NCBI GenBank assembly: GCA_039812585.1
Contig: JBDIAW010000007.1
Span: 1,162 to 65,161 of the forward strand
Source: Actinomycetota bacterium
GTDB taxonomy: Bacteria; Actinomycetota; Actinomycetes; JBDIAW01
DNA length: 64,000 nucleotides
Direction: 5' to 3'
Positions 13,370-48,421 of this stretch are shown one piece after another (position 1 is the stretch's first letter; every line of letters starts with the position of its first letter). Position numbers and translations under genes: made by a program. The notes under the pieces are model-generated. The model worked only from the letters and a program-made list of their open reading frames with translations, was not told the origin of the DNA and did not search any database.

Positions 13370-13432
13370 ACCTTCGGTGGTGTCACTGACCTCGGGTGTT
13401 TCCCTCCACTCGATGAAAGTGATGCCCCAACC

Positions 13433-16780: not shown

Positions 16781-16799
16781 TCGCTGGGTGAGATAGAAG

Positions 16800-19067
16800 C
16801 TAGCGATTAGAACTAATGGATTTCCCAGCTTGAAGCATGAAAGATTCTCGTGGCAAACGAGGCAACCGGATCATCTGAGAGGCACGATAAGGGACAGTTG
16901 CCCCACTGCGGGTAGAGTGCCCAGGTTTTTTCACGACACTGAATTGATGACCTTGCATCAAGTATTTCCTCTGCCCATGAACAGAACCCCATTCTGGTCT
17001 TGGAATAAGCGAAGCTTGCAGAATGACCACGCTATGACCTGGGATGATCACAGTCCCTCCTGGAACAATACCGGTCGGTGTGATCAGTGTTTTGTCGGCA
17101 GTCGTCGTGCATTCCAACGCATAGCTTTTCCACTGTCCTGCAGGCAGCTGAAAAGCAGTCTGCTTTGAGGAGCGATTAAAGATAACTAAGAGGCCATCCC
17201 CATCTCGTGTGGCACGTGGTGTAGTCGGCTGTTCCGTGCAAGCCATGAATGCGCCGAAGCATGAAATATGGGCATCCTGCGCTGTGTTAACGGTCGATCC
17301 GTCAGCTTTGAGCCATACGACATCTGGTGGCCCCCCCTCAAAATGAGGCAATCCTGTAAAATGACCGGGATCTCTTAATGCAGGGTGAGTTTTCCTGAGA
17401 TCAGCTAAGGCACCAAAGAAATGAAGTAGATCAGGATCTGGCACAGGCCATTGATGCCACACTCTGGCGTCATCAATGTCGTAAGGATTATGTAAACCGT
17501 CCTGTGTTTGGCCGCAAATATCGTTTGCTGTGACGAGCGGCATGCCTTTTGAAGTCATCAAAATCGTGAGTAAGCCCAGCGATATTTGTCGATTCACAGA
17601 GACGTCATTGGTGTTGGTGATATCTCTTACACGGTCTGCAAGTGTAGGTCCATCGTGACTACCAATGTATGAAATTACTCCACCTACCTTCCAGCCATGC
17701 GAATCGGAACTTCCAGCAAACCCTTTAATGAATAAATCTAAAGATTTACTGTTAGTAAGCCACCCAATAGAATCTCTCAACCCTGGATCCCACTCTGCAT
17801 ATTTACCTGGCAAACTACCAATTTGCGTTCCTAGGCAATCCCAAGGCTCCCCGCTTAGAAAGAGTCGAGATAACTCGGGATCATGTGCAATGTCATGGAG
17901 GAGTTGACTTGTGCCCTGTTCGTGAGTTTCACCCCCTCGTGTTAGCGCTGCCAGAAGATCGAAACGAAAGCCATCCACACCTAAATCGGCAAGATTGCGC
18001 AACGAGTCCATGATTATTTGGCGGGTCAATGGCGTATCATTTAAGGATGCACCACACCCGGTACAATCCCAATAATGAGGACCTATAGGTCGATACCATC
18101 CATGTGGATCTAAGCCTTTACCGGATGCTGTCAAGCCTTGGTGGTTACCCTCAAAGGTATGATTATAGACAACATCTACGATAATTTCTAGTCCTTGTCG
18201 GTGAAATGCCTCCACCATATCAGCGAATTCTTTTCTAATACCTCCTGGGTAGCCCTGTGTTCCATATCCAGGATCCAAAGCCATAAAGCTCATAGAATTG
18301 TATCCCCATACGTCATCAGGATGAGAGGCATGAACGGGCATGAGTTCTATAGTGGTTACTCCGGCAGCCTGAAAGAAGGGGATCAGGTGAACTAATCCAG
18401 AAAATGTTCTTCTTTGTCCTTCGGGTACATCTGGATGTATTCGTGTAATATGTCCGACATGAACTTCACAGATTATCCGCTGTGAAAGCGGTATTTTTGG
18501 TCTGTTTCCAGTATCCCACTGAAGGGAGTTGTCTGGTACTACCGAAAATGGAACATATCCAAAACTGTCGTAGTTATTAGGGCGAATATCAGCAGTACGA
18601 AAATTTCCACTTCTATCCATATCGTGTCCGTCATAAGTGGCTGCCCGTCCTATTTGCATCTTCTTTGGGTTTGGGTAGGCAATCTCCGACGCATGTGGAT
18701 CTATCAACGCTTTGTGAGGGTTGAACACCTCGCCCATGTAAGGTGCCCAAGGTCCATCAACACGGATGTTGTACTTCGTACCGGGCGGTGTGTCGGGTAT
18801 CTCTCCCGTCCATGGACCTTTGGTGGCAGCACTGCTTAAATCTCTTTGTCTAGATTGTGGTGTGAGAGACCAGAGTTCCTCTCTGCCATTAGGTTTAAGA
18901 ACTGCTATATAAACTTTCCAAGCTTTAGGCGCAAAGACGGTGAAGGTGGTTGCTCCGGTCTCGGGATCATAAGTCGGTCCCTGTCGTTCAGGACTTGGGG
19001 CGGGCCTTGCAGCCCGTACTCTAATGATTGCCTTTTCATAGCTCATGTCATGCATTTTAACATCCAA
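16800..19067 (-). CDS. treX: glycogen debranching enzyme GlgX/TreX (GH13 isoamylase-type)
   Basis: CBM48 N-terminus and GH13 catalytic regions (GFRFDLLA, VDVVYNH). ~48% GC; sits downstream of treY. Confidence 0.85.
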   Translation of the reverse strand: MDVKMHDMSYEKAIIRVRAARPAPSPERQGPTYDPETGATTFTVFAPKAWKVYIAVLKPNGREELWSLTPQSRQRDLSSAATKGPWTGEIPDTPPGTKYNIRVDGPWAPYMGEVFNPHKALIDPHASEIAYPNPKKMQIGRAATYDGHDMDRSGNFRTADIRPNNYDSFGYVPFSVVPDNSLQWDTGNRPKIPLSQRIICEVHVGHITRIHPDVPEGQRRTFSGLVHLIPFFQAAGVTTIELMPVHASHPDDVWGYNSMSFMALDPGYGTQGYPGGIRKEFADMVEAFHRQGLEIIVDVVYNHTFEGNHQGLTASGKGLDPHGWYRPIGPHYWDCTGCGASLNDTPLTRQIIMDSLRNLADLGVDGFRFDLLAALTRGGETHEQGTSQLLHDIAHDPELSRLFLSGEPWDCLGTQIGSLPGKYAEWDPGLRDSIGWLTNSKSLDLFIKGFAGSSDSHGWKVGGVISYIGSHDGPTLADRVRDITNTNDVSVNRQISLGLLTILMTSKGMPLVTANDICGQTQDGLHNPYDIDDARVWHQWPVPDPDLLHFFGALADLRKTHPALRDPGHFTGLPHFEGGPPDVVWLKADGSTVNTAQDAHISCFGAFMACTEQPTTPRATRDGDGLLVIFNRSSKQTAFQLPAGQWKSYALECTTTADKTLITPTGIVPGGTVIIPGHSVVILQASLIPRPEWGSVHGQRKYLMQGHQFSVVKKPGHSTRSGATVPYRASQMIRLPRLPRESFMLQAGKSISSNR

Positions 19068-22225: not shown

Positions 22226-22687
22226 TCAAGAGTTCAGTTCGTAAGGACTGAACTCTTCTACCGTGCGTCGCCTGATCATCGTGCTGCTGACCCCTGGGGT
22301 ATAGCCGAAATACTCCACGGCTGCGCCGAGGGCTTTTAGGCGCTCTGCATCGGCTATCCATCCTGGCTCGTGGGCGCGGTCGTCTCCGGCGAACAGGCAG
22401 TCAAAACCCCAGCGCTGCCAAGCGGCTACTTTGTCGATGGTGGTGTGATCAACCAGCACCACCTCATCGACGTAGCGGAGGGCAGCCAGGATTTCGGCGC
22501 GATCTGCGGCTGTGATCACTGGAGGGCGCTGCTTGAAGAAAATCACTAATTCATCGGTGAGAACTCCCACACGTAGATGCTGACAGCGGGCGCGCGCTTG
22601 ACGCAGCAGGGCTAAGTGGCCCACGTGGAACAGGTCGAAAACTCCCGCAATGTAACCACGCGCATACCTTGGGTCAAGTTGGGACAC
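22226..22687 (-). CDS. glycerol-3-phosphate cytidylyltransferase-like (TagD/TarD family)
   Basis: GVFDLFHVGHLALLRQARA (HxGH nucleotidyltransferase motif). Start taken as GTG 22687; the track ORF runs to 22810 and overlaps the upstream gene. Confidence 0.7.
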   Translation of the reverse strand: MSQLDPRYARGYIAGVFDLFHVGHLALLRQARARCQHLRVGVLTDELVIFFKQRPPVITAADRAEILAALRYVDEVVLVDHTTIDKVAAWQRWGFDCLFAGDDRAHEPGWIADAERLKALGAAVEYFGYTPGVSSTMIRRRTVEEFSPYELNS

Positions 22688-25628: not shown

Positions 25629-26851
25629 GTGGGCACCCGCAGGGCAATCATGCCCCGGCCCAGGTCGTCGCGCAGATGCAGCCCGTCGAGGAAGGATAAC
25701 TCCAGGCGGGAGTAGGTGCTGCTGATGTGGCGCCACAGGCGGTCGGCAAACTCCGGGTAGACAGCTTTGGCCCCACCGGCCAGCGCGGCGGGGGAGATGA
25801 GGCTGCTCAGCTCGGCCACCATCGAGGCCCACGTATCGCGCACGGCAGCGTGCAGCTGCTCCAGGCAAGCCAGGTGGGCACTGCAGCGATGCTCGGCAAA
25901 GCTGAGGAACGCTCCCGCGCAGTTCATGGTGGACACCGACGCTTCGGTGGAGGTCACCATCGTCTCTAACAGGTGGTAGCGGCCCAGCAACCAGCTGGGA
26001 TGCTCCCCTGGGTGCACGCCGCGAGTCAGCAGCGCACTCACCTGCCCGTGCCAGTCGGGCATCCCCCGGTAAAAGCCCAGGTAGAAGCCCTGCCAGTCGG
26101 CTGTGACCAATTGCTCCAAGCCGGCCTGGCACGTGCCCATCGAGACCAGATCGAAAAAGGCGAACGTGCCGCCCTCGCGCACCCCCAAGCGGTGCAGGTA
26201 GGCACTGTAATGCTGACGCAAGCCTGCGGCGTCCTGCAAAATCTGATCGCGATGCGCAAAGGCGCGCTGCAGGGCCAGCTGAGCTCCAGCCGCATCCAAC
26301 GCCGTGCGCGGGGCATCTGGGCTGCTGGTGGACACCCCCGCAAGGCCAGCGGGCAGGCGCTCGGCCAGCAGGTCATCCACCGTGCCGGCAAAGGGGGAGT
26401 GGCACAGGGCAGCTAGATCCTGGTCGCTGCGCAGGCTGGCCTTGCTGATGAGGCTTCGGGAGATGCGTAAATAGCGCGAGGCTGGCAGATTGTGCCCGCC
26501 GGGCAAGTGGCGCAACGACTCATAGAGCTGGCGCAGCAGCAGGCCATCGCGAGCGGCGAAAAGAACCAGGTGAGGTTGGCGCAGCATCATCTGCTGGGCC
26601 AACCACACGGTGAAAACGCCCAGCAGCGGCCCGAGAATGAGCTGGCCCACCTGCGTCATCGAACTCAACCGGGGGCGGGGGTCCTCCGGCGGCCCACCCA
26701 ATCGCTGGGCGTGCTCGATCACTGCCCGGGCCACGTGGTGCTCCAGGGGGGATCGGGCCAGGTGCTCCAAGTCCGCCCAGGGGTGTGCACTGTCCTGCTG
26801 TGGTGAGATCTCCGGCAGCCTGGGGGTGTCAGTGGGGGTGGGCCAGGGCAT
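25625..26851 (-). CDS. hypothetical protein carrying an uncharacterised domain paralogous to the C-terminal half of 30247..32478
   Basis: LVLFAARDGLLLRQLYE and GTFAFFDLVSMGTCQAGLEQL align with LYVAARDGFILQRLITD and DTIAFCDFVSAGTSQLALEDVL in the other protein. Confidence 0.5.
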   Translation of the reverse strand: MPWPTPTDTPRLPEISPQQDSAHPWADLEHLARSPLEHHVARAVIEHAQRLGGPPEDPRPRLSSMTQVGQLILGPLLGVFTVWLAQQMMLRQPHLVLFAARDGLLLRQLYESLRHLPGGHNLPASRYLRISRSLISKASLRSDQDLAALCHSPFAGTVDDLLAERLPAGLAGVSTSSPDAPRTALDAAGAQLALQRAFAHRDQILQDAAGLRQHYSAYLHRLGVREGGTFAFFDLVSMGTCQAGLEQLVTADWQGFYLGFYRGMPDWHGQVSALLTRGVHPGEHPSWLLGRYHLLETMVTSTEASVSTMNCAGAFLSFAEHRCSAHLACLEQLHAAVRDTWASMVAELSSLISPAALAGGAKAVYPEFADRLWRHISSTYSRLELSFLDGLHLRDDLGRGMIALRVPT

Positions 26852-27992
26852 AGAGAACCGTCTCCGCAGGGTAGATGCTGTAGTGGCGCAGGTAGAGCGT
26901 GTAATCGGGGACCAGCGAGGTGATGAGTTCCGGGATGATCACCACGTCCTCCGGGCGGTGGTAAACCGAGATCGCCAAGCTGGGACGGTGAGTGGTGATG
27001 GTCGAACGCGCCCCCCACAGCGCTTCGTACTCTGCGCCCTCAATGTCCATCTTGATGAAGCTGACCGCCCGGCCCTGCAGCCAGGAGTCCAGGTCGGTCA
27101 CCTCAATACTGTCTGCGGCTTGGGCGGCGATGGTCGAGCTGCCGTTGCTGGTAGCAAGAAAGCCCAACCGGGTTTGGTGGCTCCACAACCCCAGGGGTAC
27201 CAGCGTGCACGCCGGGCGCCGCCCCGCCTGGACCAGCTGGTGGGCGCGGGCGAGGTTGGCCGGATCGGGCTCGAAGGCGTAAAACTGCCCTCGGTGCTCA
27301 GGGCCGTAGTGGCGTTGCATGACCTCAGCAAAGGCTTGGGTGGTCTCCAGCTCCAACGCCCCGGCATCCACCACCACCTCATCGGCGCGCAGGTGCACCA
27401 AGCCTGGTTCCAGGTATTGCACCGACAGATCCGCGCTGCCGCCCAGAATGTGCTCCGGGCTGACCCCGTGGGCTAGCAGCAGTGTGCGCATCTGGTCGGC
27501 ATACATCTCCGAGCCCAACAGGAAGCGCACCGGGCGGCCTTGATGGTAGGCGGCAACGACCTCCAGAGGATGCTCCACGGGCAGATCCTTGGTGGCGCTC
27601 AGTGCGCTGTTGCGGTCGCAGAAACTATGCACCTGCACACCCAACTGTGACTGCACAATCCAGCGCAGCGCATCCCCCTCCCCCCCAGCCCCATAGATCA
27701 CCAGCTGGCAGGAAGGCGCCAGAGCGGCGAGTTGATCGAGCAAACGCTGCCAGCTAAAGGGCTCCTTCAACTGGACCAGACCTTGATCGACCAGATCCAT
27801 CATGCACATCGGGTCGTGGGTGTGGTTCATCTGGAGTCGGGCAGCCAGGATGGTGCGAGAGTGCTCATCGGCCAACCGGTCAGCTACCGCCTCGGCCTGT
27901 GCCGTAGTGGGCACCGGGCGCTGCACTGGCAGGCCCAACGGTGCCGGGTCGCAGGCCAGGCTGGGTGGGGCTGGGTGCAGATTCAGGCTCAT
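26829..27992 (-). CDS. FkbM-family methyltransferase with N-terminal Rossmann-like domain
   Basis: FIKMDIEGAEYEAL FkbM motif. ATG at 27992 forms an ATGA overlap with the TagF-like stop. N-terminal QLVIYGAGGEGD. Confidence 0.7.
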   Translation of the reverse strand: MSLNLHPAPPSLACDPAPLGLPVQRPVPTTAQAEAVADRLADEHSRTILAARLQMNHTHDPMCMMDLVDQGLVQLKEPFSWQRLLDQLAALAPSCQLVIYGAGGEGDALRWIVQSQLGVQVHSFCDRNSALSATKDLPVEHPLEVVAAYHQGRPVRFLLGSEMYADQMRTLLLAHGVSPEHILGGSADLSVQYLEPGLVHLRADEVVVDAGALELETTQAFAEVMQRHYGPEHRGQFYAFEPDPANLARAHQLVQAGRRPACTLVPLGLWSHQTRLGFLATSNGSSTIAAQAADSIEVTDLDSWLQGRAVSFIKMDIEGAEYEALWGARSTITTHRPSLAISVYHRPEDVVIIPELITSLVPDYTLYLRHYSIYPAETVLYALAHPH

Positions 27993-30250
27993 GACTGGCT
28001 CCGGGTGGGCGTGCAAGCCAGGCTGTTCTGCTCCCGCACGGTGCGCACCAGACCGTCGTGGATGCGTTGCCCCACCCGCCCATCCAGCGGCCCCATCACC
28101 GCCGCAAAGGCCTGCCGTTGCCCTGCTTCATCGTGCTGTCCGTTGGTGAGGTGGTCCAACAGGTCATCGAGGCTGACCTCACCTCCATCTTGTTGGCAGG
28201 CCCAGGGCAGGTTGGCACTGTAACTGCCAAAGCAGCCGTGCTCCTGCGTGCGTTGCCAGGCATCGGGGTCGGCACAGCGAGTGGAGACCAGCCTCCAACT
28301 GCCGTCAGGACTGCCTATCGACAGCGACAGGTCATAGGCCCATTGCGTGACCACCGTGCCATCAGCCAAGCAGGTGGCGAACAGGGCGTTACTGACCCAG
28401 TCATGCTCGGGGGTACTGCGCTGCGCAGCGTCCTGGTAGGGCAGTGGGCCCACATCGGCCAGCTCAATCCGTGGTGTAGAGGCGTGAGGGTCGATCCGCA
28501 CCGCAGCGTTGGCGTCACGAGGCAAGGCCAACACCTGCCCCTGCCAGGCCACCACGTTGACAAAAGGGATCACCCCGGGAGTGAAGCCGGCGGGGTAGTC
28601 ACTGAAGCGGCGCGTCTGGCCAGTGTCCAGATCGTAGGCCAGGATGGTGCTGCCCTGCGCGGGTGCCAACCACACCGTGCGGTCCAGAACGAGCAGATCC
28701 CAAAACGCCTCGCCGGGCTGGCCCACCTCGTGGCGGGTCACCGTGTGGGTGGCCAGATCGAAGATGAATAGCGCGTTGGTGCGGGTGCTGGCCATATACA
28801 GCAGATCCCCCTCCAGCTGCACCCCGTTCATGGCGTGGAAGATCAGCTCGTTGCCGTGCGGGGCGGGGTTATCCTCCAGCCAGTCATCCCACACCTGCTG
28901 AGCTCCGGTGCTCAGGTCGACCAGGACCAAGCCTGGGTGCAGGCCTGGTACCAGCACCAGGGTGTCCCTCCAGCGCACCGAGCGCACGAAGGACTGCGGC
29001 GTTGCCCCGGGAACCTCGTTGCGCTGCATCCACCCACTGGAGGGCTGGTAGCGGCACATCACCCGGGAGAAGTAAGGAGTCACCAGCAGCTCGTCGTGTT
29101 CGCGGCTCCAGGACACAGCATTGTGGGCGCGCAACAACTGCCTGGGTTGACCCAGGCTGGCTACGGGGGTGAACTCACCTGTAGCCAGATCCAGCCGACA
29201 CAGGGTGTCCAGCCGGGCATGGGCAAACCACGCGGTGGTTGGCTCATCAGGATCCTGAACCAGGTCCGTCATCCACGCCTGGTCATAGCAGGTGGAGCTT
29301 GGCGGTTGCTGGTGGGCCTGAGGGTCAGGAGCAGCCAGCAACAGCACCGGCTTACCTGCCGCCCCAAAGTAATGCGCCGCCGAGGAGGTCGGCTCTCCCA
29401 GGTAGGCCGAGCACCAATGCAGGGCGGCGCTGAGATCAGTGGTGGTATCGATGAGCACCGCCTGGCTGCTGGTCGCCGTTTTGCGCAAAGCGTTATAGGC
29501 CACTCGCACCAAGGGGGCCTGGGAGGTCAGCGTGGCCTCCAGCAGAGGGTGAGGCCTCCAGATCAGCACGATGTCGCGGCGTTGCTCCACCGCCGCGATG
29601 ACCTGTTTCAGGCGCGTGAAGTAGGCCGAACCCGCCGCCAATACTGTGGCGATTCCGGTGTTGAGAAACACGGCGGTACGTCCCCGTAGGTGACTCACCC
29701 AGTCCGGTGTCTGCAAAGGCACAGTGCTGTTGGTGCTGGTTGCACGCACGACCAGGTCGGTTTTGGCGCTGCCCCAGGGCAGGAGTTTGTCACGGTAGCG
29801 CGGGCTGAAATGGTGAGCCATCTGCGGCGTTTGCGTGATGATCCAATCCACGTTGTCATAACTGGGCAGACTGCCGTGGGATTCGGTCAACGCCCCCCCG
29901 GAAAGGTAATAAGGCAGGTAGACAATGCTGGCCCCGGTATTTTTCAACGTGGAGGCAAAAAACCGTTGGGGGATCCGGGTCACCACGTTGAAAATGTCAA
30001 AGACGTTGTGCAGATAGATGATGTCGGGACCAAAACTGTGCACATCGAAGGTTTCGTGGGACTCCACCATCACCTCAGCCGGAAACTGGTCGGATTCATC
30101 GTGGACGGCGACCGGAACACCTTCAACGATTTCGCTGTAAGGGATGGGAATGACCTTCACCTCGCACTCTGGGTCGTTGATCGCCGCCTGCCAAACCGTG
30201 TGCATGCAGTCCCACAAGCTTGCTTTATAGGGCATGAAACAGATCCTCAT
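27989..30250 (-). CDS. TagF/TagB-family CDP-alditol phosphotransferase (polymerase-like) fused to C-terminal beta-propeller-like repeat domain
   Basis: N-terminal ~400 aa has RDIVLIWRPHPLL (the KPHP-type motif of the Glyphos_transf family). The C-terminal ~350 aa has repeated beta-strand blocks. ATG at 30250 overlaps the upstream stop as ATGA. Confidence 0.65.
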   Translation of the reverse strand: MRICFMPYKASLWDCMHTVWQAAINDPECEVKVIPIPYSEIVEGVPVAVHDESDQFPAEVMVESHETFDVHSFGPDIIYLHNVFDIFNVVTRIPQRFFASTLKNTGASIVYLPYYLSGGALTESHGSLPSYDNVDWIITQTPQMAHHFSPRYRDKLLPWGSAKTDLVVRATSTNSTVPLQTPDWVSHLRGRTAVFLNTGIATVLAAGSAYFTRLKQVIAAVEQRRDIVLIWRPHPLLEATLTSQAPLVRVAYNALRKTATSSQAVLIDTTTDLSAALHWCSAYLGEPTSSAAHYFGAAGKPVLLLAAPDPQAHQQPPSSTCYDQAWMTDLVQDPDEPTTAWFAHARLDTLCRLDLATGEFTPVASLGQPRQLLRAHNAVSWSREHDELLVTPYFSRVMCRYQPSSGWMQRNEVPGATPQSFVRSVRWRDTLVLVPGLHPGLVLVDLSTGAQQVWDDWLEDNPAPHGNELIFHAMNGVQLEGDLLYMASTRTNALFIFDLATHTVTRHEVGQPGEAFWDLLVLDRTVWLAPAQGSTILAYDLDTGQTRRFSDYPAGFTPGVIPFVNVVAWQGQVLALPRDANAAVRIDPHASTPRIELADVGPLPYQDAAQRSTPEHDWVSNALFATCLADGTVVTQWAYDLSLSIGSPDGSWRLVSTRCADPDAWQRTQEHGCFGSYSANLPWACQQDGGEVSLDDLLDHLTNGQHDEAGQRQAFAAVMGPLDGRVGQRIHDGLVRTVREQNSLACTPTRSQS

Positions 30251-32478
30251 GGCATGGCTTCCTCTGCTGGGGCGGCTGGACATTCCAAACCGGTGCATTC
30301 CAGCCAGGAGAAATCTCGACCACAAAACTCGTCATAGAGTTTTTTGTCCGCCAGGATGTGTGGGTTAGTGACCACGGTGTAGTCGCGGTGAAGAAATTTC
30401 AGCAGCCGATCGGCCACGCTCGGATCAGGATTGTGCCACGGGGTGTAGCCCAGTAATTCGTGAAAAGTGCGTGCATAATCGGTGATCGCATCGTGGATGT
30501 CCCGCAGACTGGCAATTTGATCAGGTGTTCTCGTTTCAGGGCCAAACACTGGCTCGCCACCTGAAGAAAATCCCACCAACGTCGGTTGATCAGACGACAG
30601 CACATTTTCGACGAACATGTAGTTGTCCAACAGGTGTGACGTGGACACATAGTGGTTACCGCTAGTGAAAAGTGACTGGACAGCTAAGCCTTTTTTGGGA
30701 GGAAAGTCGGAGGCTAAGCGGACGAAAAAGAACCCCTGGATCGATCGACCCAACACATCCTCCAACGCCAATTGAGAGGTACCTGCCGAGACGAAGTCAC
30801 AGAAGGCAATCGTGTCTTCCTTGGTCAGTCCAAGATCTTCCAGATAGGTACGGTAATTCTTTTCTGCTTCTTGCGCGCGGGCTTGGATGGCCGGCCAGTG
30901 GCGCTGCACATAATCGACCCATTCTTCCCCTGCCTCTCGGGGGGAGATCTCCTGCGGATCCAGGTGGAAACGTTGGGCAAGCAGGTGCTCCGCACTGCCT
31001 TGGAAGGGAAACGAGACGGCATACTCCAAGCGCTGTGGGTTGACCAACGAAGCAAAAACCCCGCAGGCTCGTGAAGTGAGTAGATAGACCGGTTGGGGAT
31101 AGTGATGCTCACCTCGATGACGATGCTGATAGCCCTGGATAAAATCAGTAATGAGCCGTTGAAGAATAAAGCCGTCACGTGCTGCTACATACAATCGCTC
31201 ACATTGACCTTGTGTGCGCTCGAGCAGCCAGTGAACAAAGGTGGTGACAATCGGTGCAGTAAAGATGGTCCCGATATCGCTGTCATGCTCGAGACGAAGA
31301 CGTCCTTGGGTGTCATGGAAGATAAACGGATCATTGAAGACGTGCGAGGCGAACATTCCCACCTGAAGCTGGGTGTGGGGGGTCGTAGCGAGCTCCAGGA
31401 GTTCATCGAGGGCCGAGCAGTCCAACAGGGCATAAGGGGAGGCAATGAGCACACTGGACATTCCCCGCTGGGTGGCAGCTGCATCGTCGGCGTCGGGGTT
31501 GTCTCCAATGTGCACACAGGTCGAAGGGTTTTTACCTTCCAGATACACGTCAAATAAGCCATTGCATTTCGAGACGCCGTAGTCGCCAGACACCAGCAGG
31601 GTGTGTGGCCCACGCACCCCACAACGCTGCAACCATCCGGTGATCGTGGCGCTGGAGTGGTACATATCAGAAATCAAGGTGACGGGCTTACCTAGGCTCA
31701 GGGCATAGTCATAGAGGTCCACCACGGCTCGACGGGGGATCAGGGCTTGAGTTTCACAGGATAATTCCAGCGCTTGCAACTCCTGACATAACCATTGGGG
31801 CCAGCCGGTGTTGCGATGTAAACGTTGGTAAATATCTTCAAGGGTAGGGCTGCCGATCTCGCGGTTCAGTTCACCTTCTGCACCACTGCGTTGCTGCGCG
31901 AAACGGTCACAGTCATACCCACGAGCTGAGGCCTGTACGGCAACCAGATCAAAAATGTGTGCAGGTTGCAAAACCCGCCGGGTCATCAAGGTGTCGAAAA
32001 TGTCAAAACTAATAGAATCCGCCTGTGCGATCTGAGCTTTCACCTCATCGGAACTCACAGATGGGTAGGGATCGAGGTAGGTGTTTTTTTCTGCCAGCCG
32101 AGTCAGATCGCGTCCTTGCAAATCATAAACGGCAATGCCAGCCTGGCGACAGGATTGTTCTATGCGACGGAAAATAATACGCACATTGCTATTACGGGCC
32201 ACAATAACGATAGTTTGTACTCCAGAAGCCACTGCTTCATCCATACTCAACACCGGATACCCGTAAACCCGCTCACCTTCTCGTGCGGCATCCAACAATC
32301 CCACAATGTGATAATGCGGGTAATGGTGCACAATGATTTCAGTGCTTGCACTTAACCCATAAATGGCCACTGGAAGGTGAGGGTCGGTCACGATGGACCC
32401 AAATTGTTGCAGAACATAGCGTTGTTCAGCAGTTAACTGCCCTGGGGTATGACTGAGGTTATTCAGGGTGGTTGTCAT
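30247..32478 (-). CDS. multidomain protein: N-terminal Rossmann-like domain, HAD-like phosphatase domain (DxDxT), C-terminal uncharacterised paralogous domain
   Basis: PVAIYGLSASTEIIV...; ISFDIFDTLMTRR is HAD motif I; the C-terminal half is paralogous to 25625..26851. ~45-50% GC. ATG 32478 has a GAGGTG RBS. Confidence 0.65.
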   Translation of the reverse strand: MTTTLNNLSHTPGQLTAEQRYVLQQFGSIVTDPHLPVAIYGLSASTEIIVHHYPHYHIVGLLDAAREGERVYGYPVLSMDEAVASGVQTIVIVARNSNVRIIFRRIEQSCRQAGIAVYDLQGRDLTRLAEKNTYLDPYPSVSSDEVKAQIAQADSISFDIFDTLMTRRVLQPAHIFDLVAVQASARGYDCDRFAQQRSGAEGELNREIGSPTLEDIYQRLHRNTGWPQWLCQELQALELSCETQALIPRRAVVDLYDYALSLGKPVTLISDMYHSSATITGWLQRCGVRGPHTLLVSGDYGVSKCNGLFDVYLEGKNPSTCVHIGDNPDADDAAATQRGMSSVLIASPYALLDCSALDELLELATTPHTQLQVGMFASHVFNDPFIFHDTQGRLRLEHDSDIGTIFTAPIVTTFVHWLLERTQGQCERLYVAARDGFILQRLITDFIQGYQHRHRGEHHYPQPVYLLTSRACGVFASLVNPQRLEYAVSFPFQGSAEHLLAQRFHLDPQEISPREAGEEWVDYVQRHWPAIQARAQEAEKNYRTYLEDLGLTKEDTIAFCDFVSAGTSQLALEDVLGRSIQGFFFVRLASDFPPKKGLAVQSLFTSGNHYVSTSHLLDNYMFVENVLSSDQPTLVGFSSGGEPVFGPETRTPDQIASLRDIHDAITDYARTFHELLGYTPWHNPDPSVADRLLKFLHRDYTVVTNPHILADKKLYDEFCGRDFSWLECTGLECPAAPAEEAMP

Positions 32479-32491
32479 GGTTCGCTGCACC

Positions 32492-34464: not shown

Positions 34465-37110
34465 TTAGCGGCGCACCTGCAGCTGCACATACTCCCCGTC
34501 CTTGGGAGCCACCAGACGCAGGTAGAGCAAGCCTGCCGAGGAGTCCCACCAGGCGCAGGATTTGCCCGAGCGAGCTAGTTCGGCGGTGCTGCTGACAGCT
34601 CCGCCGTAGCACCACTGGTCTTTGGCGGCAATGTCGCATCCGTAGAGGCTGACCTGCGGCTTGGTGGGCATGGGGACCTCCACCTCCACCCAGCCCCCGG
34701 TGGGGGCCCGCATAACGTAGGCCGACTGAGCCGGGGGTGCCGCTGTGGCGAAGGCCACCGTGTAACGCTGCCCGGAAACGGCTGTGGTGTAGGCGGTGGT
34801 GGAGTCCGGCTCAGGGCCGTCGAGGGTGATGCTGGCACCCTCACGGCTGATGGTCAATGGCCGCAGCGCCGCCTGCTCGTTGGGTACCTCCACCGAGAGG
34901 CCGATGTAGGAGGCAGCAGGGCAAATCGCCGCGTTCCACTCCGGGCGCACCGTGCATCGCGAGCCTGCGTTGAACCCATCTCGTGCCATGACCACACTGC
35001 CTGCGCTGCCGGTGACTGAACCGTCAGTGTCGTGGAACAACGCCGAGCGTTGGGAGTCATACAGGGTCGGTTTGCCCTCATCGTCGGTGGGGGAGGCGGG
35101 TGCGGCGTAAAAAGGTAGGGCATCGACAAACCGCGCACTGGTGGCGAAGTTGTCGGCACTGGTGGGATAGCCGTTATCCAGCTTGAGCCCCAGCCCGCTG
35201 GCTTGACGCACTGCATTGGGCGTGAACTGGGCAAATGTGGTGGCGATGGTGCCCACATCACCGTCGTAGAACTCAAACCCCCGGATGGGGAACTCAGGCT
35301 GCCACGGGCGGGGCAGCGCTCTGCCAGCCGCCCCGCGCTTCTCCCATCCCTGCGCGGTGCCCGTGTTGGCGGTTTCGCCCACAACCAAGCTCTCGCGCAG
35401 ACTGGTGTGGTCGTTGGCGAACGTAGCCCCAATGGCGTTATCCGCCAGCACCGCAGCGTGCACCTGTTGGTGGGAACCGCGCAACCACACTCCGTGGTCA
35501 CGGTTTTTGTAGGCGGTGATGCCTTCGAACACCGCTACCACGGGGGCTGACTTCTCTGAGGTAGGGGTTTTGCGGGGGGAGAAGTTAGCCTCCACGCCGT
35601 CACGTTCCTGCTCCGGAGCAGGGTTGACGTTGACTCCGTCGCGGTCGTTGGAGTGGGCGGTGTTGTTGCGAAAGGTCCCCAGCGCGGTGGTCGCCGGGCG
35701 CAGGCTGGTGTAGGAGGACAGCTTGGCTGACAGCCCAGTGACATGTTTGGGCGGAGCGAGCCAAAAGCCCATTCCATCGGAGCCAGCGGCCACATTGCCG
35801 GTGATGGCATTGTTGGGATTGGTGATCCAAAAAGAGGCGGGGGATTGCTCATCGCTGAGCAAAATCCCTTGCCCAGCAGGAGGTTTACGGGTCCGAAAGC
35901 TCAGGTTGTCGCTGAGGCGTACCCCGGTTTCAGAGCCATCTTCAAAGAAAATCCCATGCCCGATGTGGTCATAGCAGGTGTTGCCGCTGACGGTGAGATT
36001 CTGAATACCGTGGATGGTGATGCAGCGGTTAAATGTATGGTGAATGCTGGAGTTTTTCACGTACATCTGGCTGCCATCGCCCACCAAGTGGAAGTGAATC
36101 GGGTAGCGGCGCAACGCGCTTTTCTGCCCCATGCGCGTCAGCTCGACACCAGCGATACGAGCCTGACTGCCGGCCATCACCATGATCTGCCCGCCGAATC
36201 CTCCTGAGCTGGTGGCCTGCTCGCCTTCCACGGTGACGTTGTGACTAAGCAACGCGACCTCGGCACGCTGGTCGACGCTTTGCCCCGCGACGGTCTGCAC
36301 CCGGCCCCAATGCGCAAACTCCGTGGGAGAGTTCAGCCCGATCGTGGAGCCTTGAACCGAGGTGATGGTGAACACCTCGCTGAAGGTGGGGTTGAAGTCG
36401 GTGGAGGCCACCGCGATGCGATCTCCCACCGCCCACGGCATGGGTTTGGCCAGCGTCAGACTCCGCGAGCCGGCTTTGAGGGTGGCGCCCAGTTTGGTCC
36501 ACGTGGGCAGGGTGCGTCCATGCAAATCCAGTCGACCCCCCATCACCCCAATCACCTTGGTGCCCATCTCCATGAGGTCTTCGTTGGACTTTTTGCCGGT
36601 TAAAACGATGCGGGCCCGTTTGGTGAAGGGTTGCTGCTGCGAGCCCACCTGCAACGCACCGTGCACCATAATGGCCCGCGCTTGGAGGGTGAGGTCAGCA
36701 TCGCCAAAGGTCAGCGAGCCGTTAATAGTCAGGACTCCGATGGGAGCAGGGCTGGCGATCACAACCACGTCACGTCCTGCGGGGATCGTCACATCCTGCC
36801 CGGCTAAGGGCACCTGCCCACCCCACGTTGCGGGGTCATCCCAGCGGGTGGCTTGCGCAGGGATCTGTTGTGGCCCCTGCGGGTCAGGGATTCCTACAGT
36901 GGGCCCCTCCTGCAATCCTTGACGCTCCAGCCCAGTCTGTTCTCCCGCCGTCCACGGATGCCAGGCCAGCACCCCGACCAGTCCAACCACCATGAGCACG
37001 ATGAGGGCCCCAATCAGCCCAGGCGAGCGCATCCAGGGTAGGGCTGGTGCGGCGCGTCGCCGGCCACGCACTGTTTGGGGGTAGGGCATCTGGAATTGGC
37101 TCATCCTCAC
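34465..37110 (-). CDS. membrane-anchored G8-domain / right-handed parallel beta-helix protein (putative secreted glycan depolymerase or modifying enzyme)
   Basis: N-terminal signal anchor (LIGALIVLMVVGLVGVLAW). G8-like segment DVTIPAGRDVVVIASPAPIGVLTINGSLTFGD. Many NxxHD/beta-helix repeats. Confidence 0.65.
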   Translation of the reverse strand: MRMSQFQMPYPQTVRGRRRAAPALPWMRSPGLIGALIVLMVVGLVGVLAWHPWTAGEQTGLERQGLQEGPTVGIPDPQGPQQIPAQATRWDDPATWGGQVPLAGQDVTIPAGRDVVVIASPAPIGVLTINGSLTFGDADLTLQARAIMVHGALQVGSQQQPFTKRARIVLTGKKSNEDLMEMGTKVIGVMGGRLDLHGRTLPTWTKLGATLKAGSRSLTLAKPMPWAVGDRIAVASTDFNPTFSEVFTITSVQGSTIGLNSPTEFAHWGRVQTVAGQSVDQRAEVALLSHNVTVEGEQATSSGGFGGQIMVMAGSQARIAGVELTRMGQKSALRRYPIHFHLVGDGSQMYVKNSSIHHTFNRCITIHGIQNLTVSGNTCYDHIGHGIFFEDGSETGVRLSDNLSFRTRKPPAGQGILLSDEQSPASFWITNPNNAITGNVAAGSDGMGFWLAPPKHVTGLSAKLSSYTSLRPATTALGTFRNNTAHSNDRDGVNVNPAPEQERDGVEANFSPRKTPTSEKSAPVVAVFEGITAYKNRDHGVWLRGSHQQVHAAVLADNAIGATFANDHTSLRESLVVGETANTGTAQGWEKRGAAGRALPRPWQPEFPIRGFEFYDGDVGTIATTFAQFTPNAVRQASGLGLKLDNGYPTSADNFATSARFVDALPFYAAPASPTDDEGKPTLYDSQRSALFHDTDGSVTGSAGSVVMARDGFNAGSRCTVRPEWNAAICPAASYIGLSVEVPNEQAALRPLTISREGASITLDGPEPDSTTAYTTAVSGQRYTVAFATAAPPAQSAYVMRAPTGGWVEVEVPMPTKPQVSLYGCDIAAKDQWCYGGAVSSTAELARSGKSCAWWDSSAGLLYLRLVAPKDGEYVQLQVRR

Positions 37111-38617
37111 CTCGGCTCACCCCACCTCGCTGTGTGGGTCAATCCAGCACAGCGCACCTCTGCACTCAGTCAGGCCTGCTTTGCCACACCTTTCCCCCCT
37201 CAGGCACAGATCATGAACTGGCTGGCGTTGCCTCTGCCAGCCTGAGAACAGCAGCTTTCTGCCTCGTAGACCATGGTGGTGCGCGATCTAAGCAGCCGTG
37301 ATCACCAGGAGGGCATCCTCGCTGAGGGGGTTGGTGAAGCTGCGGGTGCCAGAGTAGGTCACTGGCTCTGCCGTGCCTACGTTTTTCCCGGTGGAAGGGT
37401 TGATCCACTGAGCTTTACCGGGCCCGGAGAGCTTACCGAGGTTAATAGTGAGATTGCGCTGAACCGGGGTGTACGCCATGATCAACGATCCGTCTGACGA
37501 ACGGGCTGCGGTGGCGTAGGTATCGTTGCTGCCTCGCTCACCGGTCAGGATCGAGCCGTCGGTGTCAGGCGCCAGCGACGCGATGGGGTAGCGCTGCATC
37601 ACGATGCCCACCATGGCTGTGTCACGTGCACCTTGGCGATCGAGTTCTTTAACTGCCATCTGGCCTGCGGAACCAGGCTGTGTGTCCCAGTTCAAGACCG
37701 ATCCACCGTAGGCCACTCCCATGGCTTCAGCGAGGGCAGCCCACCAGCCGGTGCGTCTGTTGCGGCGGACTCCGAAGTCCCACCCGGAGCCGCAGCAGGG
37801 TTCCTGGTCGTAGTGCGGCTCCATGTGAAACACGGGTTTGGCGGGGGACCAGGCTCGTTGGTTGGACACGTAGCCGTAAGGCCAGGGAGAGCTTTCAGCG
37901 CTGAATTGGAAGGAATAGAAACTGTGCCATGAACGTGACTGCATCTGGGGTGCGCTGCTTTAGTTGTGGTAAGTGATGATTGCGGCGGGGTGAGCGCTGC
38001 GAATCGCCGGCCCCAAGATGTCAGCTTGGGCGATGAACTTCGCATTGTCGTCATCTCCTCCCAGGAACCAGATGACGTTGCTCGAGTTTTTGTACCGCTG
38101 CCCCAGGAAGCGGCCGTAGGCGGCCAACTCATCGTCACAAGGCGAGCGAGTCGATCCCCCATCGCCCCACCCCCCATTATTAGCTGCCCACAACGGGTTC
38201 AGCATCAATGTGATGCCTTGTGATTGGGCATATCGCACGAGCTCATCGGCTCCTTGCCACCAGGAAGGATCAGGAGAAGTTAACGTACCGTTCAGGAAAG
38301 GTTGACCGCGCACAGTGTCTTGCGTGTAGCTGTGAAATGAGAACGACGCCATGATGGTGTTATAGCCCTGGCGTTGACGAATCTGCATGTACTGCTTGAC
38401 AGCGGGGATGGTGTAACCGCTGAATATGTTCCACCCAGTGTCGGCCACCATAAAGAACGGTTTTCCGGAGTTGTCAGCCAGATAACGTTGATCGCTGCTC
38501 ACGCTCAGAGGCCAAGTGGGAGTTCCAGTCGATGAGGGGACTCGGGATGTGGAGGGCGATGCGACCTGGCTGATCGAACCAGTGCTGTGAGGGGGGGCTC
38601 CACGAGGTCGTGGCGGT

Positions 38618-38629
38618 GGGGGGGGGGGG
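38618..38629. repeat. G12 homopolymer inside Pro-rich linker coding region
   Basis: tgg gggggggggg t; encodes CCC (Pro) codons on the minus strand. Candidate slipped-strand or sequencing-error site. Confidence 0.9.
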
Positions 38630-38637
38630 TGTGGGCA

Positions 38638-38649
38638 GGGGGGGGGGGG
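38638..38649. repeat. second G12 homopolymer, 8 bp from the first
   Basis: ggg ggggggggg c at 38638-38649. Confidence 0.9.
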
Positions 38650-38955
38650 CAGAGGGCGCAGTGGGGGAGGGTGTCTGGTCCGTCACGATGTCGGTGCGGG
38701 TCGAGGTCACCGTGGAGCGATCATCCTGGCTTGCTGTCAGCAGACCAGCGATCAGTGTGGCTATACCCAGGATGACGCAGGTAACTACTGCTCGCGTACG
38801 CCAGGGTCTTGTTGCCGGTTTGGGTAATGGACTCATTCTCGGCGACTCCTTATGCCCTCCAGTCCCACAACGCGTCAGCGCTCTCTTGTCAAGAGTAGAG
38901 ATGTACTCATGGTGAGGTGTGAAAACTGGCTAAAGCCCAAGTGGGCTACCCCCGG

Positions 38956-39336
38956 TCAGGTGACAGTCAAAGGGGTGCGCAGGCCGTCTCCAGCCATACC
39001 GGGCTTGCATTGGGCGGTGTAGGTACCCGGTTGGGTGAGCTCCACGGTCATGGTGCGCGACAGGCCGGGGGAGATGTCCTCCACCTCGCTGATGACCCGA
39101 TCACCCTCGCCCAGCAGGTACAACTCGGTGAGCTTGCTGCCGGAGTTGGTCACCGTGAACTCCACTTTCCCCTTCGCCACGCTGGTGCGCGAGAGTTGAC
39201 AAGCGTTGTCGGTGGAGGTGACGGTGACGGTGACCTTCTCGGTGGAGGCTGAGGTTGAGGTGCTGCTGCAGGCGCTCAAAGTCAACACTGCACTAGCGGC
39301 GGCGAGGGTGGGCAGGACGCGATGAAACTGGTGCAT
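38956..39336 (-). CDS. cupredoxin-like lipoprotein (EfeO N-terminal-domain-like iron uptake component)
   Basis: Lipobox LTLSAC. Small beta-sandwich with KVEFTVTNSGSKLTELYLL. Lies immediately downstream of the FTR1 permease. Confidence 0.65.
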   Translation of the reverse strand: MHQFHRVLPTLAAASAVLTLSACSSTSTSASTEKVTVTVTSTDNACQLSRTSVAKGKVEFTVTNSGSKLTELYLLGEGDRVISEVEDISPGLSRTMTVELTQPGTYTAQCKPGMAGDGLRTPLTVT

Positions 39337-39369
39337 AGCGGGTTTCCTTTCGATCTAGGTCAGGGTCAG

Positions 39370-40257
39370 TTAGCGGGCGCTGGAGATCAGCTGCGGCATT
39401 GCGGTGGGGTCGGTGACCCCCACCGGCGGGCTGGCGGGGGTACGGACTGGTCGTAGGAACGCAGGCAACACCACGGTGAGGTAGGCCAGCCAGGCGATGG
39501 CCTGAAGCCAGGTAGCGGTCGGGGTGAGGTTGAACATCCCCTTGGCGAGCACCGCATACCAGGTCGATGGGTCGATCATGTGGCTGATGTCGAAGGCCAG
39601 GCTGTTTTGCCCCGGCAGCACTCCGGCCTCCTGCAGGTCGTGGATGCCGTAGGCCAGAATCCCGGCTGCGACCAGGATCAACGCCACCCCGGTGACGCGG
39701 AAAAACAGGTGCAGGTTGATGCGGATTGCCCCCTGGTAGATCAGCACGCCGAGCACCACTGCACTACCCAGCCCCACCGCCCAGCCCAGCAGTGGCCACA
39801 TCGAGCCGACCTGTGCAGCTTGCACGGTGGCGTAGAAGAAAATCGCCGTCTCCAGGCCCTCGCGGCCTACTGCCAGGAAGGCCACGAGGGCCACTGCCAA
39901 GGCGGTTTTTCGCGTCGAGCCTGCCCCCAGTGCGCGGCTCAACCGGCCTTTGAGCTGCCCGGTCAGGGTAGCGGCGGCGGTGCGCATCCACAGCACCATG
40001 CCGGTAACAAACGCCACCGCAACCAGGGAGGCCACGCCTCCTATCAGCTCTTGGGCGCGAAAGCTCAGTGTGGAGGTGCCGTAGGTGAGCAGCGCACCCA
40101 GCGCCACCGACAGAGTTACTGCGGCGAGCACCCCGGCAGCCACCCACCGTAACGCTTCCCGCCGGCCTGTTTTGACCAGGAAGGCCACCAGAATGACCAC
40201 GACCAGGGCAGCTTCCAAACCTTCACGCAAGCCGATGAGGGCGTTACTGAGCAACAC
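39370..40257 (-). CDS. efeU: FTR1/EfeU-family high-affinity iron permease
   Basis: Two REXXE motifs (REGLEAALVV and REGLETAIFF) in a polytopic membrane protein. Confidence 0.85.
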   Translation of the reverse strand: MLLSNALIGLREGLEAALVVVILVAFLVKTGRREALRWVAAGVLAAVTLSVALGALLTYGTSTLSFRAQELIGGVASLVAVAFVTGMVLWMRTAAATLTGQLKGRLSRALGAGSTRKTALAVALVAFLAVGREGLETAIFFYATVQAAQVGSMWPLLGWAVGLGSAVVLGVLIYQGAIRINLHLFFRVTGVALILVAAGILAYGIHDLQEAGVLPGQNSLAFDISHMIDPSTWYAVLAKGMFNLTPTATWLQAIAWLAYLTVVLPAFLRPVRTPASPPVGVTDPTAMPQLISSAR

Positions 40258-45704: not shown

Positions 45705-46631
45705 TCAAAGCTGGGCCTGCCTTGAGGGTAGCCCCCCGGCACGTAGGTGCAGATGGAGGTAGGCGGCGGCCTCGCAGACCGGGTCGGGTAGGGGGTGGAC
45801 CCCGGTGAGAGCGGTGCGGTGGGAGCCTCCGGCCCAGACCATAACGGGAGGGTGTAGGGCGCTCAGGTGGTCGACCACCAGTTGAGCCTGCTTGACAGTG
45901 CGGGCGGTGGGCACGCCGATGACGGCAGCCGTCACGGGTGCATGGGGCTGGTGGGCGCGACCCGCAGCCTGGACCCACTCGGTGACCGGGACATCTGCCC
46001 CCAGGTACACCACGTTGACACCGAGGCGGCGCAGGCAGGTGGCAAAAGCGAACAGCACCAACTCGTGACGCTCCCCCGGTGGGGCGCCCACCAACACCAT
46101 CGGTGCTCCAGGGCTCACCTGGGCGCCCGCCTGATCGAACAACCCACCCAGGGCGCGCATCAAACCAGCGCTGGCGAAATGCTCGGCGGCCACTGAGAGG
46201 TGGCCGGTTACCCACGCTGCGCCCAAGCGTTGTAACTGCGGTTGCAGCCAGTTCTGCGCGACGTGTTCAAACGCAGCGCTGGCCAAGGCCTGCTCTACGG
46301 TCAGGGCCAACACGCCCGGGTCCAGAGACATCGCCGTTGCTACCAGGTCCGGGTTTGGCAGGGGGTGCTGCCCAGCGGCCTGCAGTTCCCCCGTGGAGTC
46401 GGTTGAGCTGTTCAGCACGGCTTGCGCGGCCTGGGCGGTGGGAACTCCAGCGGCCACCAATGCGGCCATGTGGCGCAGGGCTGCCACCTGGGTGGGGTCG
46501 TAAAGACGATAGTTACCGCCAGAACGCGCAGGTTCCACGATGTGGTAGCGACGCTCCCATGCACGCAATGTGGCTTGGGCCACCCCGGTCAGGGCACTGA
46601 CCTGCTTGACGGTGTAGCTAGGGCTGATCAT
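45705..46631 (-). CDS. MerR-family regulator with C-terminal cobalamin-binding domain (CarH/LitR-like light-responsive regulator)
   Basis: YTVKQVSALTGVAQATLRAWERRY HTH. Rossmann-like B12-binding region PGERHELVLFAFATCLRRLGVNVVYLGADVP. Divergent from the carotenoid operon. Confidence 0.75.
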   Translation of the reverse strand: MISPSYTVKQVSALTGVAQATLRAWERRYHIVEPARSGGNYRLYDPTQVAALRHMAALVAAGVPTAQAAQAVLNSSTDSTGELQAAGQHPLPNPDLVATAMSLDPGVLALTVEQALASAAFEHVAQNWLQPQLQRLGAAWVTGHLSVAAEHFASAGLMRALGGLFDQAGAQVSPGAPMVLVGAPPGERHELVLFAFATCLRRLGVNVVYLGADVPVTEWVQAAGRAHQPHAPVTAAVIGVPTARTVKQAQLVVDHLSALHPPVMVWAGGSHRTALTGVHPLPDPVCEAAAYLHLHLRAGGLPSRQAQL

Positions 46632-46674
46632 GGGGCTCGCTTTCACCAACGACTCCAGGCAGGGTAGCAAAGCC

Positions 46675-46749
46675 TGGACAAAGGTTGAACAGATCAGCTA
46701 GGGTCGACCACAACCTTGGACAAAGATTGGACAAACGATCCGTGGACAC
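46675..46749. promoter_or_regulatory. TGGACAA direct repeats with ~10-11 bp periodicity in divergent carH/crt promoter region (candidate CarH operator)
   Basis: cTGGACAAAGgTTGAACAgatc...cTTGGACAAAGaTTGGACAAAcgatccgTGGACAct. Confidence 0.35.
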
Positions 46750-46810
46750 TTCAGTGCACTCTCCCCTGACGGTCAGCCCCAGGAGGGATGCTGAGGAGAG
46801 TGATCAGGTA

Positions 46811-48421
46811 GTGCTGCTCAACGAGGTGGGGCAGCCGATCGGGCAGGCACCGCGCAGCAGCATCCATTCCCCCCACACACCGCTACATCTGGCCTTCTCC
46901 ACCTACCTATTCAATGCTCGCGGCGAGGTGCTGCTCACCCGACGAGCCCTGAGTAAGAAAACCTGGCCTGGAGTATGGACTAACTCCTGCTGCGGGCATC
47001 CCCAGCCCGGCGAGGAACTGGAGGCCGCCATTCGTCGGCGCATCCGGCAGGAGTTGGGGCTGCGCATAGGCCGCTTGATCCCTCTGCTGCCCGATTTTCG
47101 CTACCGCGCCACTGACTCCAATGGGATCGTGGAAAACGAGATCTGCCCTGTTTATGCGGCGGTGCTCAAAGACCACCAGCCACCGTTGATGCCTGACCCC
47201 GATGAGGTGGCTGAATGCGCCTGGGTGCCCTGGCCCCACGTTCTTGCCGCCGTGGCCGCCACTCCGCAGGTGTACAGCCCTTGGGCGGCCCAGCAAATCG
47301 CCCTGCTGGGCCAACACCCCTTGCCTGATCTGAACCCCCCGCTACAGCCGCCTGTCTTAAGCCTGCAGGAGTTCACCGCTGAGGTGGATGCCCTCCTTGC
47401 CCAGCAAACTAGCGCCTTGATCCAGGAGTGGGCCAGTTATACCAAGCAGTTGCGGCTGGACATTCTGCCCGAGGATCTGCCGGCCTGGTTGGAACACCTG
47501 CTGGTGGGGCAGGGTAAACGCCTGCGGGTCATGATGACCTTCTGGGGTTTTGCTGCGGCGGGAGGTCGGGCGGACTCCCCCGGTTATCACCACGCAGTGC
47601 GCGCTGCTGCCGCATTGGAGACCTTGCACTTGTTCGCGCTGATTCACGACGACGTGATGGACGAATCCAGCATGCGTCGAGGTTTTCCGGCTGCCCATGT
47701 TCAGGCCGCTCAGTGGCACCGGCAGGCCAACGCTCGCGGGGACGCGCCGGTGTTTGGCCGCAACCTTGCCATTTTGCTGGGGGATCTGGCCCACACCACC
47801 GCCGACCGCTTGGCCCAAGACCTGCCCGAGGCGATGCGCCAGCAGTGGTATGCCCTCTCGGTTGAACTCATTGCTGGTCAGCGGGCGGACCTGACCGCTG
47901 CGGCGGCGGGTCGACGCGAGCAGGCGCACGCCCAGCAGGTGGCTGACATCAAATCGGGCCACTACACCATCACCCGCCCGTTGCATTTGGGGGCCTGTGC
48001 GGCGCAGGCTAACTCAGCAGTGATGGCTGCTTTGACGCAGTACGCCACCCATGTGGGCCGGGCGTTTGCCTGGCGAGATGACTACCTCGGCGTGTGGGGA
48101 GATCCAGTGGTGACTGGCAAACCAGCCGGGGAGGATCTGCTGGAGGCTAAAGCGACGGTTCTGCTCAGCGTGGCCCAGCAGCAGATGCGCGGCTGGCCAG
48201 CGCACCTGCTGGCCCGGGTGGGGACTGCAGGGTTTGGTCCTTTGGACGCAGCAGCTTTGGCCCAGAACATGCACGAGGCGGGTGTGGACTCCCAGTTGGA
48301 GGCAATGATCGCTGCCGAGGTGGAGGCAGCTGTTGATGCGCTAAACCCGCGTGTTCTGCCAGCAAGCGCGGTGGCTGGCCTGGGCCAAGCGGCCCAGGCC
48401 ATCGCCTGGAGAGACGCGTGA
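46811..48421 (+). CDS. fused isopentenyl-diphosphate isomerase (type 1) / geranylgeranyl diphosphate synthase
   Basis: N-terminus VVLLNEVGQPIG...LHLAFSTYLFNARGEVLLTRRALSKKTWPGVWTNSCCGHP closely resembles E. coli Idi. C-terminus is a polyprenyl synthase with IHDDVMDE. One continuous frame. GTG 46811 has a GAGGAGAG RBS. Confidence 0.8.
   Translation: MLLNEVGQPIGQAPRSSIHSPHTPLHLAFSTYLFNARGEVLLTRRALSKKTWPGVWTNSCCGHPQPGEELEAAIRRRIRQELGLRIGRLIPLLPDFRYRATDSNGIVENEICPVYAAVLKDHQPPLMPDPDEVAECAWVPWPHVLAAVAATPQVYSPWAAQQIALLGQHPLPDLNPPLQPPVLSLQEFTAEVDALLAQQTSALIQEWASYTKQLRLDILPEDLPAWLEHLLVGQGKRLRVMMTFWGFAAAGGRADSPGYHHAVRAAAALETLHLFALIHDDVMDESSMRRGFPAAHVQAAQWHRQANARGDAPVFGRNLAILLGDLAHTTADRLAQDLPEAMRQQWYALSVELIAGQRADLTAAAAGRREQAHAQQVADIKSGHYTITRPLHLGACAAQANSAVMAALTQYATHVGRAFAWRDDYLGVWGDPVVTGKPAGEDLLEAKATVLLSVAQQQMRGWPAHLLARVGTAGFGPLDAAALAQNMHEAGVDSQLEAMIAAEVEAAVDALNPRVLPASAVAGLGQAAQAIAWRDA

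Follow-up and report, generated by a model that had tools for sequence, protein, structure and literature searches.

A probable pseudogene of a GH140-like glycoside hydrolase whose linker frameshift lies outside two neighbouring G12 tracts

The closest described relatives of the enzyme encoded at the locus reported here are glycoside hydrolases of family GH140, whose founding member is BT1012 of Bacteroides thetaiotaomicron (PDB 5msy/3kzs) and whose catalytic profile, PF13204, is the former DUF4038. For homopolymers in coding sequence, a described system is the 7C/7G tract of glpK in M. tuberculosis, which undergoes reversible frameshifting at 3e-8 per generation (PMC10334774; bioRxiv 10.1101/717272). 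Apparent homopolymers can also bear the mark of sequencing chemistry: GGT>GGG is the strongest systematic-error motif of Illumina data, being both direction-specific and replicable (PMC3295828), and T>G at NT[TG] is an artefact of two-colour chemistry (PMC13218037).

We analysed a 64,000 nt stretch of a 65,821-nt actinobacterial contig, hereafter the window. Its transketolase gene (964-3207) shares at most 68% identity with any named sequence and 80% with one Logan protein, which places the contig in a deeply branching, uncultured lineage of Actinomycetota. The window contig was absent from the matches of two protein-pattern scans of GTDB species representatives.

An original prediction, made from the window sequence, described a secreted GH140-like hydrolase gene that was broken at two tandem G12 homopolymers and by an in-frame TAA, and that was either phase-variable or decaying. 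We observed that the N-terminal ORF and the catalytic domain do lie in different frames (phase 1 and phase 0), and that the G12 runs and the TAA are present in the window where they had been placed. The gene is laid out as follows.

38836-38474, minus strand: ORF1, 120 aa, codon phase 1, with its ATG at 38836 and a TGA at 38476-38474
38502-37960, minus strand: ORF2, the N-terminal half of the apiosidase-like (GH140) catalytic domain, phase 0, stopping at the premature TAA
37959-37288, minus strand: ORF3 region, the C-terminal catalytic half plus Collagen_bind_2 (PF12904), in the phase of ORF2
37944-37288, minus strand: ORF3 as called, phase 0, with the native stop TAG at 37290-37288

A search for relatives that took in 5.8 billion proteins identified P0001 (517 aa, 67% identity) as the closest intact protein; the retrieved DNA of its gene is referred to as L001. 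ORF1 comprises an Arg-rich, basic N-terminus, a hydrophobic segment of ~20 residues (RTRAVVTCVILGIATLIAGLLTA) and then a Ser/Thr/Pro linker, and its N-terminus aligns with that of P0001 (RTRAV..C..LGI..L.AGLLT.S.DD...T.TRTD). The hydrophobic segment is a putative signal peptide or signal anchor, from which we infer an export signal. The catalytic phase is open from about 38683, where it reads PLSVSSDQRYLADNSGKPFFMVADTGWN..., as far as the TAA, and then continues in the same phase to the TAG.

When the gene was repaired conceptually, PF13204 (Apiosidase-like) matched the protein with E=1e-56 (193 bits against a cut-off of 26.5) and covered model positions 1-318 of 320 in the joined sequence, while PF12904 matched C-terminally at residues 426-511 (E=3e-11); most homologues have both domains. 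Among solved structures, the closest to the conceptually joined protein were apiosidase 8t9w (E=2e-31) and, for GH140, 3kzs/5msy (E=1e-27), with alignments that covered almost its whole length. The full-length catalytic profile, the similarity to characterised members and the C-terminal PF12904 argue for membership of GH140, in agreement with the predicted identity. Judged by its sequence, the former product was an exported GH140-family (apiosidase-like) glycoside hydrolase with a putative signal or anchor, a Ser/Thr/Pro linker, and a barrel followed by Collagen_bind_2. With two breaks in its reading frame, the window gene cannot give rise to an enzyme.

The dead gene lies between two other loci.

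38956-40257: FTR1/cupredoxin iron-uptake pair, flanking the dead GH140 gene on one side
34465-37104, minus strand: G8/CEMIP beta-helix protein of 879 aa, intact and immediately downstream from the dead GH140 gene

A nearby cluster holds IspD-like nucleotidyltransferase, NAD-dependent epimerase-like, LicD and FkbM-type genes. The pairing of GH140 with G8/CEMIP is absent beside both P0001 and P0002, the next closest relative (gene L002), and APS-kinase-type genes come after both. These sulfate-activation genes (PUA_2/APS-kinase type) lie at 3657-4604 of L001 and 4868-6397 of L002, which hints that this GH140-like clade may be linked to sulfated glycans. It is no more than a guess that the window enzyme once trimmed a glycan of the cell envelope or one outside the cell. 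A search of the window against Rfam returned no RNA family, and a promoter and terminator scan around the gene returned nothing above shuffle expectation.

Two further regions of the window may be of interest in their own right. Very large minus-strand ORFs (1152, 408, 395, 778 and 747 aa) occupy 22674-32490, with the ends of adjacent ORFs overlapping; LicD and FkbM-methyltransferase are the only recognizable domains, and several of the ORFs have no Pfam match. This region is possibly a biosynthesis island for a cell-wall glycopolymer (teichoic-acid-like) of a poorly known actinobacterial lineage. At 45705-46670 (minus strand) lies a MerR-type regulator with B12-binding domains, the architecture of CarH/LitR-like light sensors, and divergent from it at 46685-48421 (plus strand) is a 578-aa isopentenyl-diphosphate isomerase fused to a polyprenyl (GGPP/FPP-type) synthase. 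Taken as a unit, 45705-48421 resembles an isoprenoid/carotenoid module under light control, and its Idi-synthase fusion is unusual.

We used exact-protein look-ups of ORF3 and the neighbouring cupredoxin gene to obtain Logan contigs, which came from four SRA runs. Contig L004 (SRR10090775) aligned to the window over 8,882 nt without gaps and with exactly 5 mismatches, all in the G12 tracts, and L005 (SRR10090778) aligned over 3,802 nt, likewise without gaps and with the same 5 mismatches. Gene calls on L004 gave products of 120, 163 and 218 aa, and L005 stops inside the second ORF. The frameshift is carried by the window, L004, L005 and L008 (SRR19427084), and all assemblies (the NCBI contig, SRR10090775, SRR10090778 and SRR19427084) align gap-free at the locus. 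Because the lesions recur across read sets, they are not random sequencing errors. A longer comparison was made with contig L019 (SRR10090775), which differs from window positions 5203-18662 (13,460 nt) by four scattered transitions and one C>G; the two are near-identical yet not perfectly so, and the Logan contigs are genuinely independent of the window assembly. The C>G lies at window position 10444, in a GGCGG context (CTGGCGGAC > CTGGGGGAC) within a histidine-kinase ORF (8853-10541). It is the only transversion among the five differences between the window and L019 and, like the change at 38641 described below, it extends a run; the window G may be another miscall in the NCBI contig.

Other searches for the locus were less productive. 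When the window-type 120-aa product was looked up exactly, neither Logan nor ENA contigs contained it, leaving the single NCBI contig as its only source in the collection searched, and metagenome contigs scanned with a pattern that allowed any tract content or length gave no match. The SRR accessions had no match in the literature. Genome contigs scanned with a single protein yielded no relative, and scanned with an alignment they yielded only relatives of ~35-42% identity, from MAGs assigned to Propionibacteriaceae, Actinomycetota and other groups; being too distant, they were dropped as guides to the linker.

The break had been predicted to lie in the G12 tracts, and homology placed it elsewhere. 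In the DNA alignment, the codons CCC TCT GCC before the tracts and ACG ACC TCG after them lie in the N-terminal phase in the window and in the coding phase in L001. Since both of these codon anchors are in the N-terminal phase, the G12 tracts at their present length keep the ancestral phase. A tblastn comparison agreed: the N-terminal-phase match spans both tracts as far as TTSWSPPS, opposite TTSDSPSS of P0001. Homology in the catalytic phase starts at 38541, with GTC CCC TC (VPS..G.P.WPL). The positions that delimit the frameshift are as follows.

38611-38603, minus strand: upstream codon anchor, ACGACCTCG
38602-38542, minus strand: frameshift interval of 61 nt, from the codon anchors against L001
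38597-38591, minus strand: C7 run (G7 on the plus strand), present as C7 in the window, L004, L005 and L008
from 38541, minus strand: downstream codon anchor, GTCCCCTC

The two anchors are 63 nt (21 codons) apart in L001 and 61 nt (20 codons plus 1) in the window, which puts the frameshift inside the interval, 16-76 nt downstream of the second G12 tract. Within it, the C7 run is the most likely site of a 1-nt insertion by expansion of a C run. Just after C7, the catalytic phase reads HSTGSISQVASPSTSRVPSSTG, which is Ser/Thr/Pro-rich and linker-like as in P0001, while the N-terminal phase reads SQHWFDQPGRIALHIPSPLIDW (SQHWFDQPGRIALHI...), which is not linker-like; P0001 has CCCCTCC in place of a run. 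We infer the exact base from a low-complexity linker and one close relative, and what this evidence fixes is the interval.

Simulation of length changes clarified what slippage could achieve. The frame was restored by -1 or +2 only, whether in a G12 tract or in C7, and not by +1 or -2, so that the predicted rescue by a slip of one nucleotide in either direction holds for one direction alone; in every case the frame-restored ORF still ended at the TAA, after 291-292 aa. Repair of both lesions (C7->C6 plus TAA->CAA) gave a 515-aa protein, against the 517 aa of P0001.

The second lesion is a nonsense codon.

37962-37960, minus strand: in-frame TAA, opposite Gln (CAG) in the two closest relatives

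The window, L004 and L008 all carry the TAA, at a position that L005 does not reach. It sits mid catalytic barrel, just past the invariant His of the ...ITYH motif. The comparison of orthologues proposed with the original prediction was informative here: the closest relatives are intact in frame, L001 and L002 each having CAG where the window has TAA, and more distant relatives have Trp. The window protein also carries 8 private changes at columns that are invariant in its ten closest relatives, 6 of the 8 lying downstream of the TAA. At the same invariant columns, P0001 has 3 private changes, P0002 has 0 and one intact distant relative has 11, and relaxed constraint on the window protein is suggested by what is a weak signal.

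Taken together, these data make it highly likely that the locus is a recently inactivated, fixed pseudogene with two independent lesions, and that the G12 tracts neither cause nor modulate the break. The first lesion is a net +1 frameshift in the linker, inside the 61 nt interval and most likely through C-run expansion to C7; the second is a Gln-to-TAA nonsense mutation in the catalytic barrel. Both are fixed in the population covered by several sequencing runs. Of the two fates originally proposed for the gene, decay is supported by lesions that recur across assemblies while relatives are intact; phase variation is not, the tract length being the same in every assembly with no ON state.

The G12 tracts call for an explanation of their own. 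They are the only homopolymers of at least 8 bases in the 64 kb window, in which runs of at least 12 are expected ~0.06 times from base composition, and they were not a reproducible feature: in L004 and L005 the equivalent sequence is interrupted, non-homopolymeric and of equal length, in the same broken gene. The frameshift therefore exists in genomes that lack G12. The tracts and the five substitutions (L004-type base > window base, plus strand) are as follows.

38638-38649: G12 tract 1 (C12 on the gene strand), CCCCCACCGCCC in L004 and L005, equal length
38618-38629: G12 tract 2 (C12 on the gene strand), ACCACCCCCACC in L004 and L005, equal length
38620: T>G in GGT, tract 2
38626: T>G in GGT, tract 2
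38629: T>G in GGT, tract 2
38644: T>G in GGT, tract 1
38641: C>G in GGC, which becomes GGG, tract 1

On the gene strand, L004 and L005 read GCC CCC ACC GCC CTG CCC ACA ACC ACC CCC ACC ACC GCC across the tracts, which translates to APTALPTTTPTTA, a Pro/Thr linker of ordinary kind and as long as that of the window. The five substitutions turn Thr and Ala codons (ACC, GCC) into CCC and leave the length unaltered. The tracts are in frame in either version and are not the lesion.

No other stretch of the window comes near the surrounding 38584-38683 in G-richness (up to 82% G in 40 nt), and this region contains a canonical G-quadruplex motif in both sequence versions. Each of the four changed T bases precedes G or T. 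In SRR19427084 the Logan contigs stop exactly at both tracts: L006 ends inside tract 1 with C11, and L008 starts inside tract 2 and at 38620 agrees with L004 against the G of the window. Against a background difference rate of about 3e-4 per nt or lower, five changes in 25 nt are wildly non-random, and either an artefact confined to the site or extreme hypermutation there has to be invoked. We consider that the G12 tracts are probably a base-calling or assembly artefact. Illumina miscalls of the GGT>GGG type would have entered a low-coverage metagenome-assembled contig at an extremely G-rich site of G-quadruplex type. Two other G4 motifs (12806-12829 and 14256-14279) are identical between the window and L019, and this counts against an artefact to the extent that G-richness alone does not always produce discrepancies. 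A diversity-generating retroelement was also considered for the clustered A-to-C changes (gene strand) and rejected: one change is G-to-C, and the cluster occupies 25 nt of a linker rather than a C-terminal variable region.

The main alternative, though unlikely, is that the G12 tracts are real alleles that arose by run-extending substitutions in the linker of an already dead gene, prone to slippage but not the cause of the break. The route would be transient-misalignment ('dislocation') mutagenesis or a clustered event at the G4-forming site. Under the Kunkel model, run-extending changes are the expectation of dislocation mutagenesis, and all five changes lengthen existing G runs, as does the further C>G at 10444 in its GGCGG context. 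Genuine SNPs separate the window population from that of SRR10090775 (4 scattered transitions in 13.5 kb), and the C11 end of L006 backs the window-type tract 1, although L006 may share reads with the NCBI assembly. However, the 25 nt hold 5 transversions and the other ~10.5 kb of overlap with L004 and L008 hold 0, so that a local rate >1000-fold above background would be needed, five times over. The same read set that gave the C11 end also has the L004-type base at 38620 (L008), the differences match a known sequencing-error motif exactly, and the Logan contigs break at the tract site. We regard as a long shot the stronger proposition that a burst of five substitutions in the G4-forming Pro/Thr linker of one strain created two new 12-nt slippage tracts immediately upstream of the frameshift. 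If true, it would mean the birth of a contingency tract, or else hypermutation of an extreme and local kind at a G4 site; a -1 slip in either tract would then suppress the frameshift.

Readings in which the gene still yields enzyme fare worse than that of a pseudogene. Were slippage in G12 or C7 to toggle the hydrolase, the window would represent the OFF state of a phase-variable contingency gene. A -1 change in either G12 tract or in C7 rejoins one frame, 7-nt C/G runs are proven to be reversible in M. tuberculosis glpK (PMC10334774), and a putative exported, envelope-associated product is of the class that is typically phase-variable. As for long simple-sequence tracts, the window has G12 twice, L004 and L005 have an interrupted sequence of equal length in their place, and all have C7. 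No length variation was seen, with C7 and 12+12 nt in every assembly and at least 3 read sets, and P0001 lacks a run at the C7 position. Whatever the tract state, the TAA would end the product at 291 aa, and this lesion is beyond repair by slippage. No simulated tract length carried the ORF past the TAA (292 aa at most), leaving no ON state; given the downstream TAA, no tract state gives a full-length product, and we hold phase variation to be very improbable. Recoding, in which tRNA-Pro would shift +1 on the CCC-C of C7 and the TAA would be read through to give some full-length enzyme, has in its favour that CCC-C is a +1-prone site and that the shift needed is +1, on a CCC CCC run where the slipped tRNA stays cognate. 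Yet TAA is the least leaky stop codon, the relatives require neither event, and a gene that needs recoding at two separate points would be without precedent, which leaves this explanation with a negligible probability.

The biological weight of the pseudogene is small: an uncultured lineage of actinobacteria has lost a single accessory glycoside hydrolase. The locus has more to say about the reading of metagenome-assembled contigs. Long G/C homopolymers in such contigs, especially in Pro/Thr-rich linkers, can be GGT>GGG miscalls, and should not be read as phase switches without read-level support. A frameshift beside a conspicuous tract is not necessarily in the tract, and homology anchoring can place it.

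How does this locus compare with the described systems? Like the M. tuberculosis glpK tract, the C7 of the window is a 7-nt C/G coding run in which a 1-nt change toggles the frame; unlike glpK, the locus has no length heterogeneity among assemblies and carries an irreversible TAA downstream. Set against Illumina systematic errors, 4 of the 5 tract differences are GGT>GGG and are clustered in an extremely G-rich stretch with contig breaks, whereas the fifth is C>G, and such errors normally stay below the consensus, so that their entry into it would require low or strand-biased coverage.

A functional GH140 enzyme needs one uninterrupted ORF, and the window gene, with its frameshift and TAA, does not have one. 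The window protein shares no more than about 25-30% identity with characterised GH140 members, its host is an actinobacterium that has not been cultured, and the gene adjoins a G8/CEMIP beta-helix gene and cell-wall glycopolymer genes in contrast to a pectin-utilisation locus. Compared with the intact P0001 and P0002, the lesions are disabling, and they were seen in independent assemblies, as expected of a pseudogene. Ordinary bacterial pseudogenes have the same two-lesion pattern of a short-homopolymer frameshift and a nonsense codon in an otherwise well-preserved gene, and nothing notable differs here; the enzyme family is likewise a known one.
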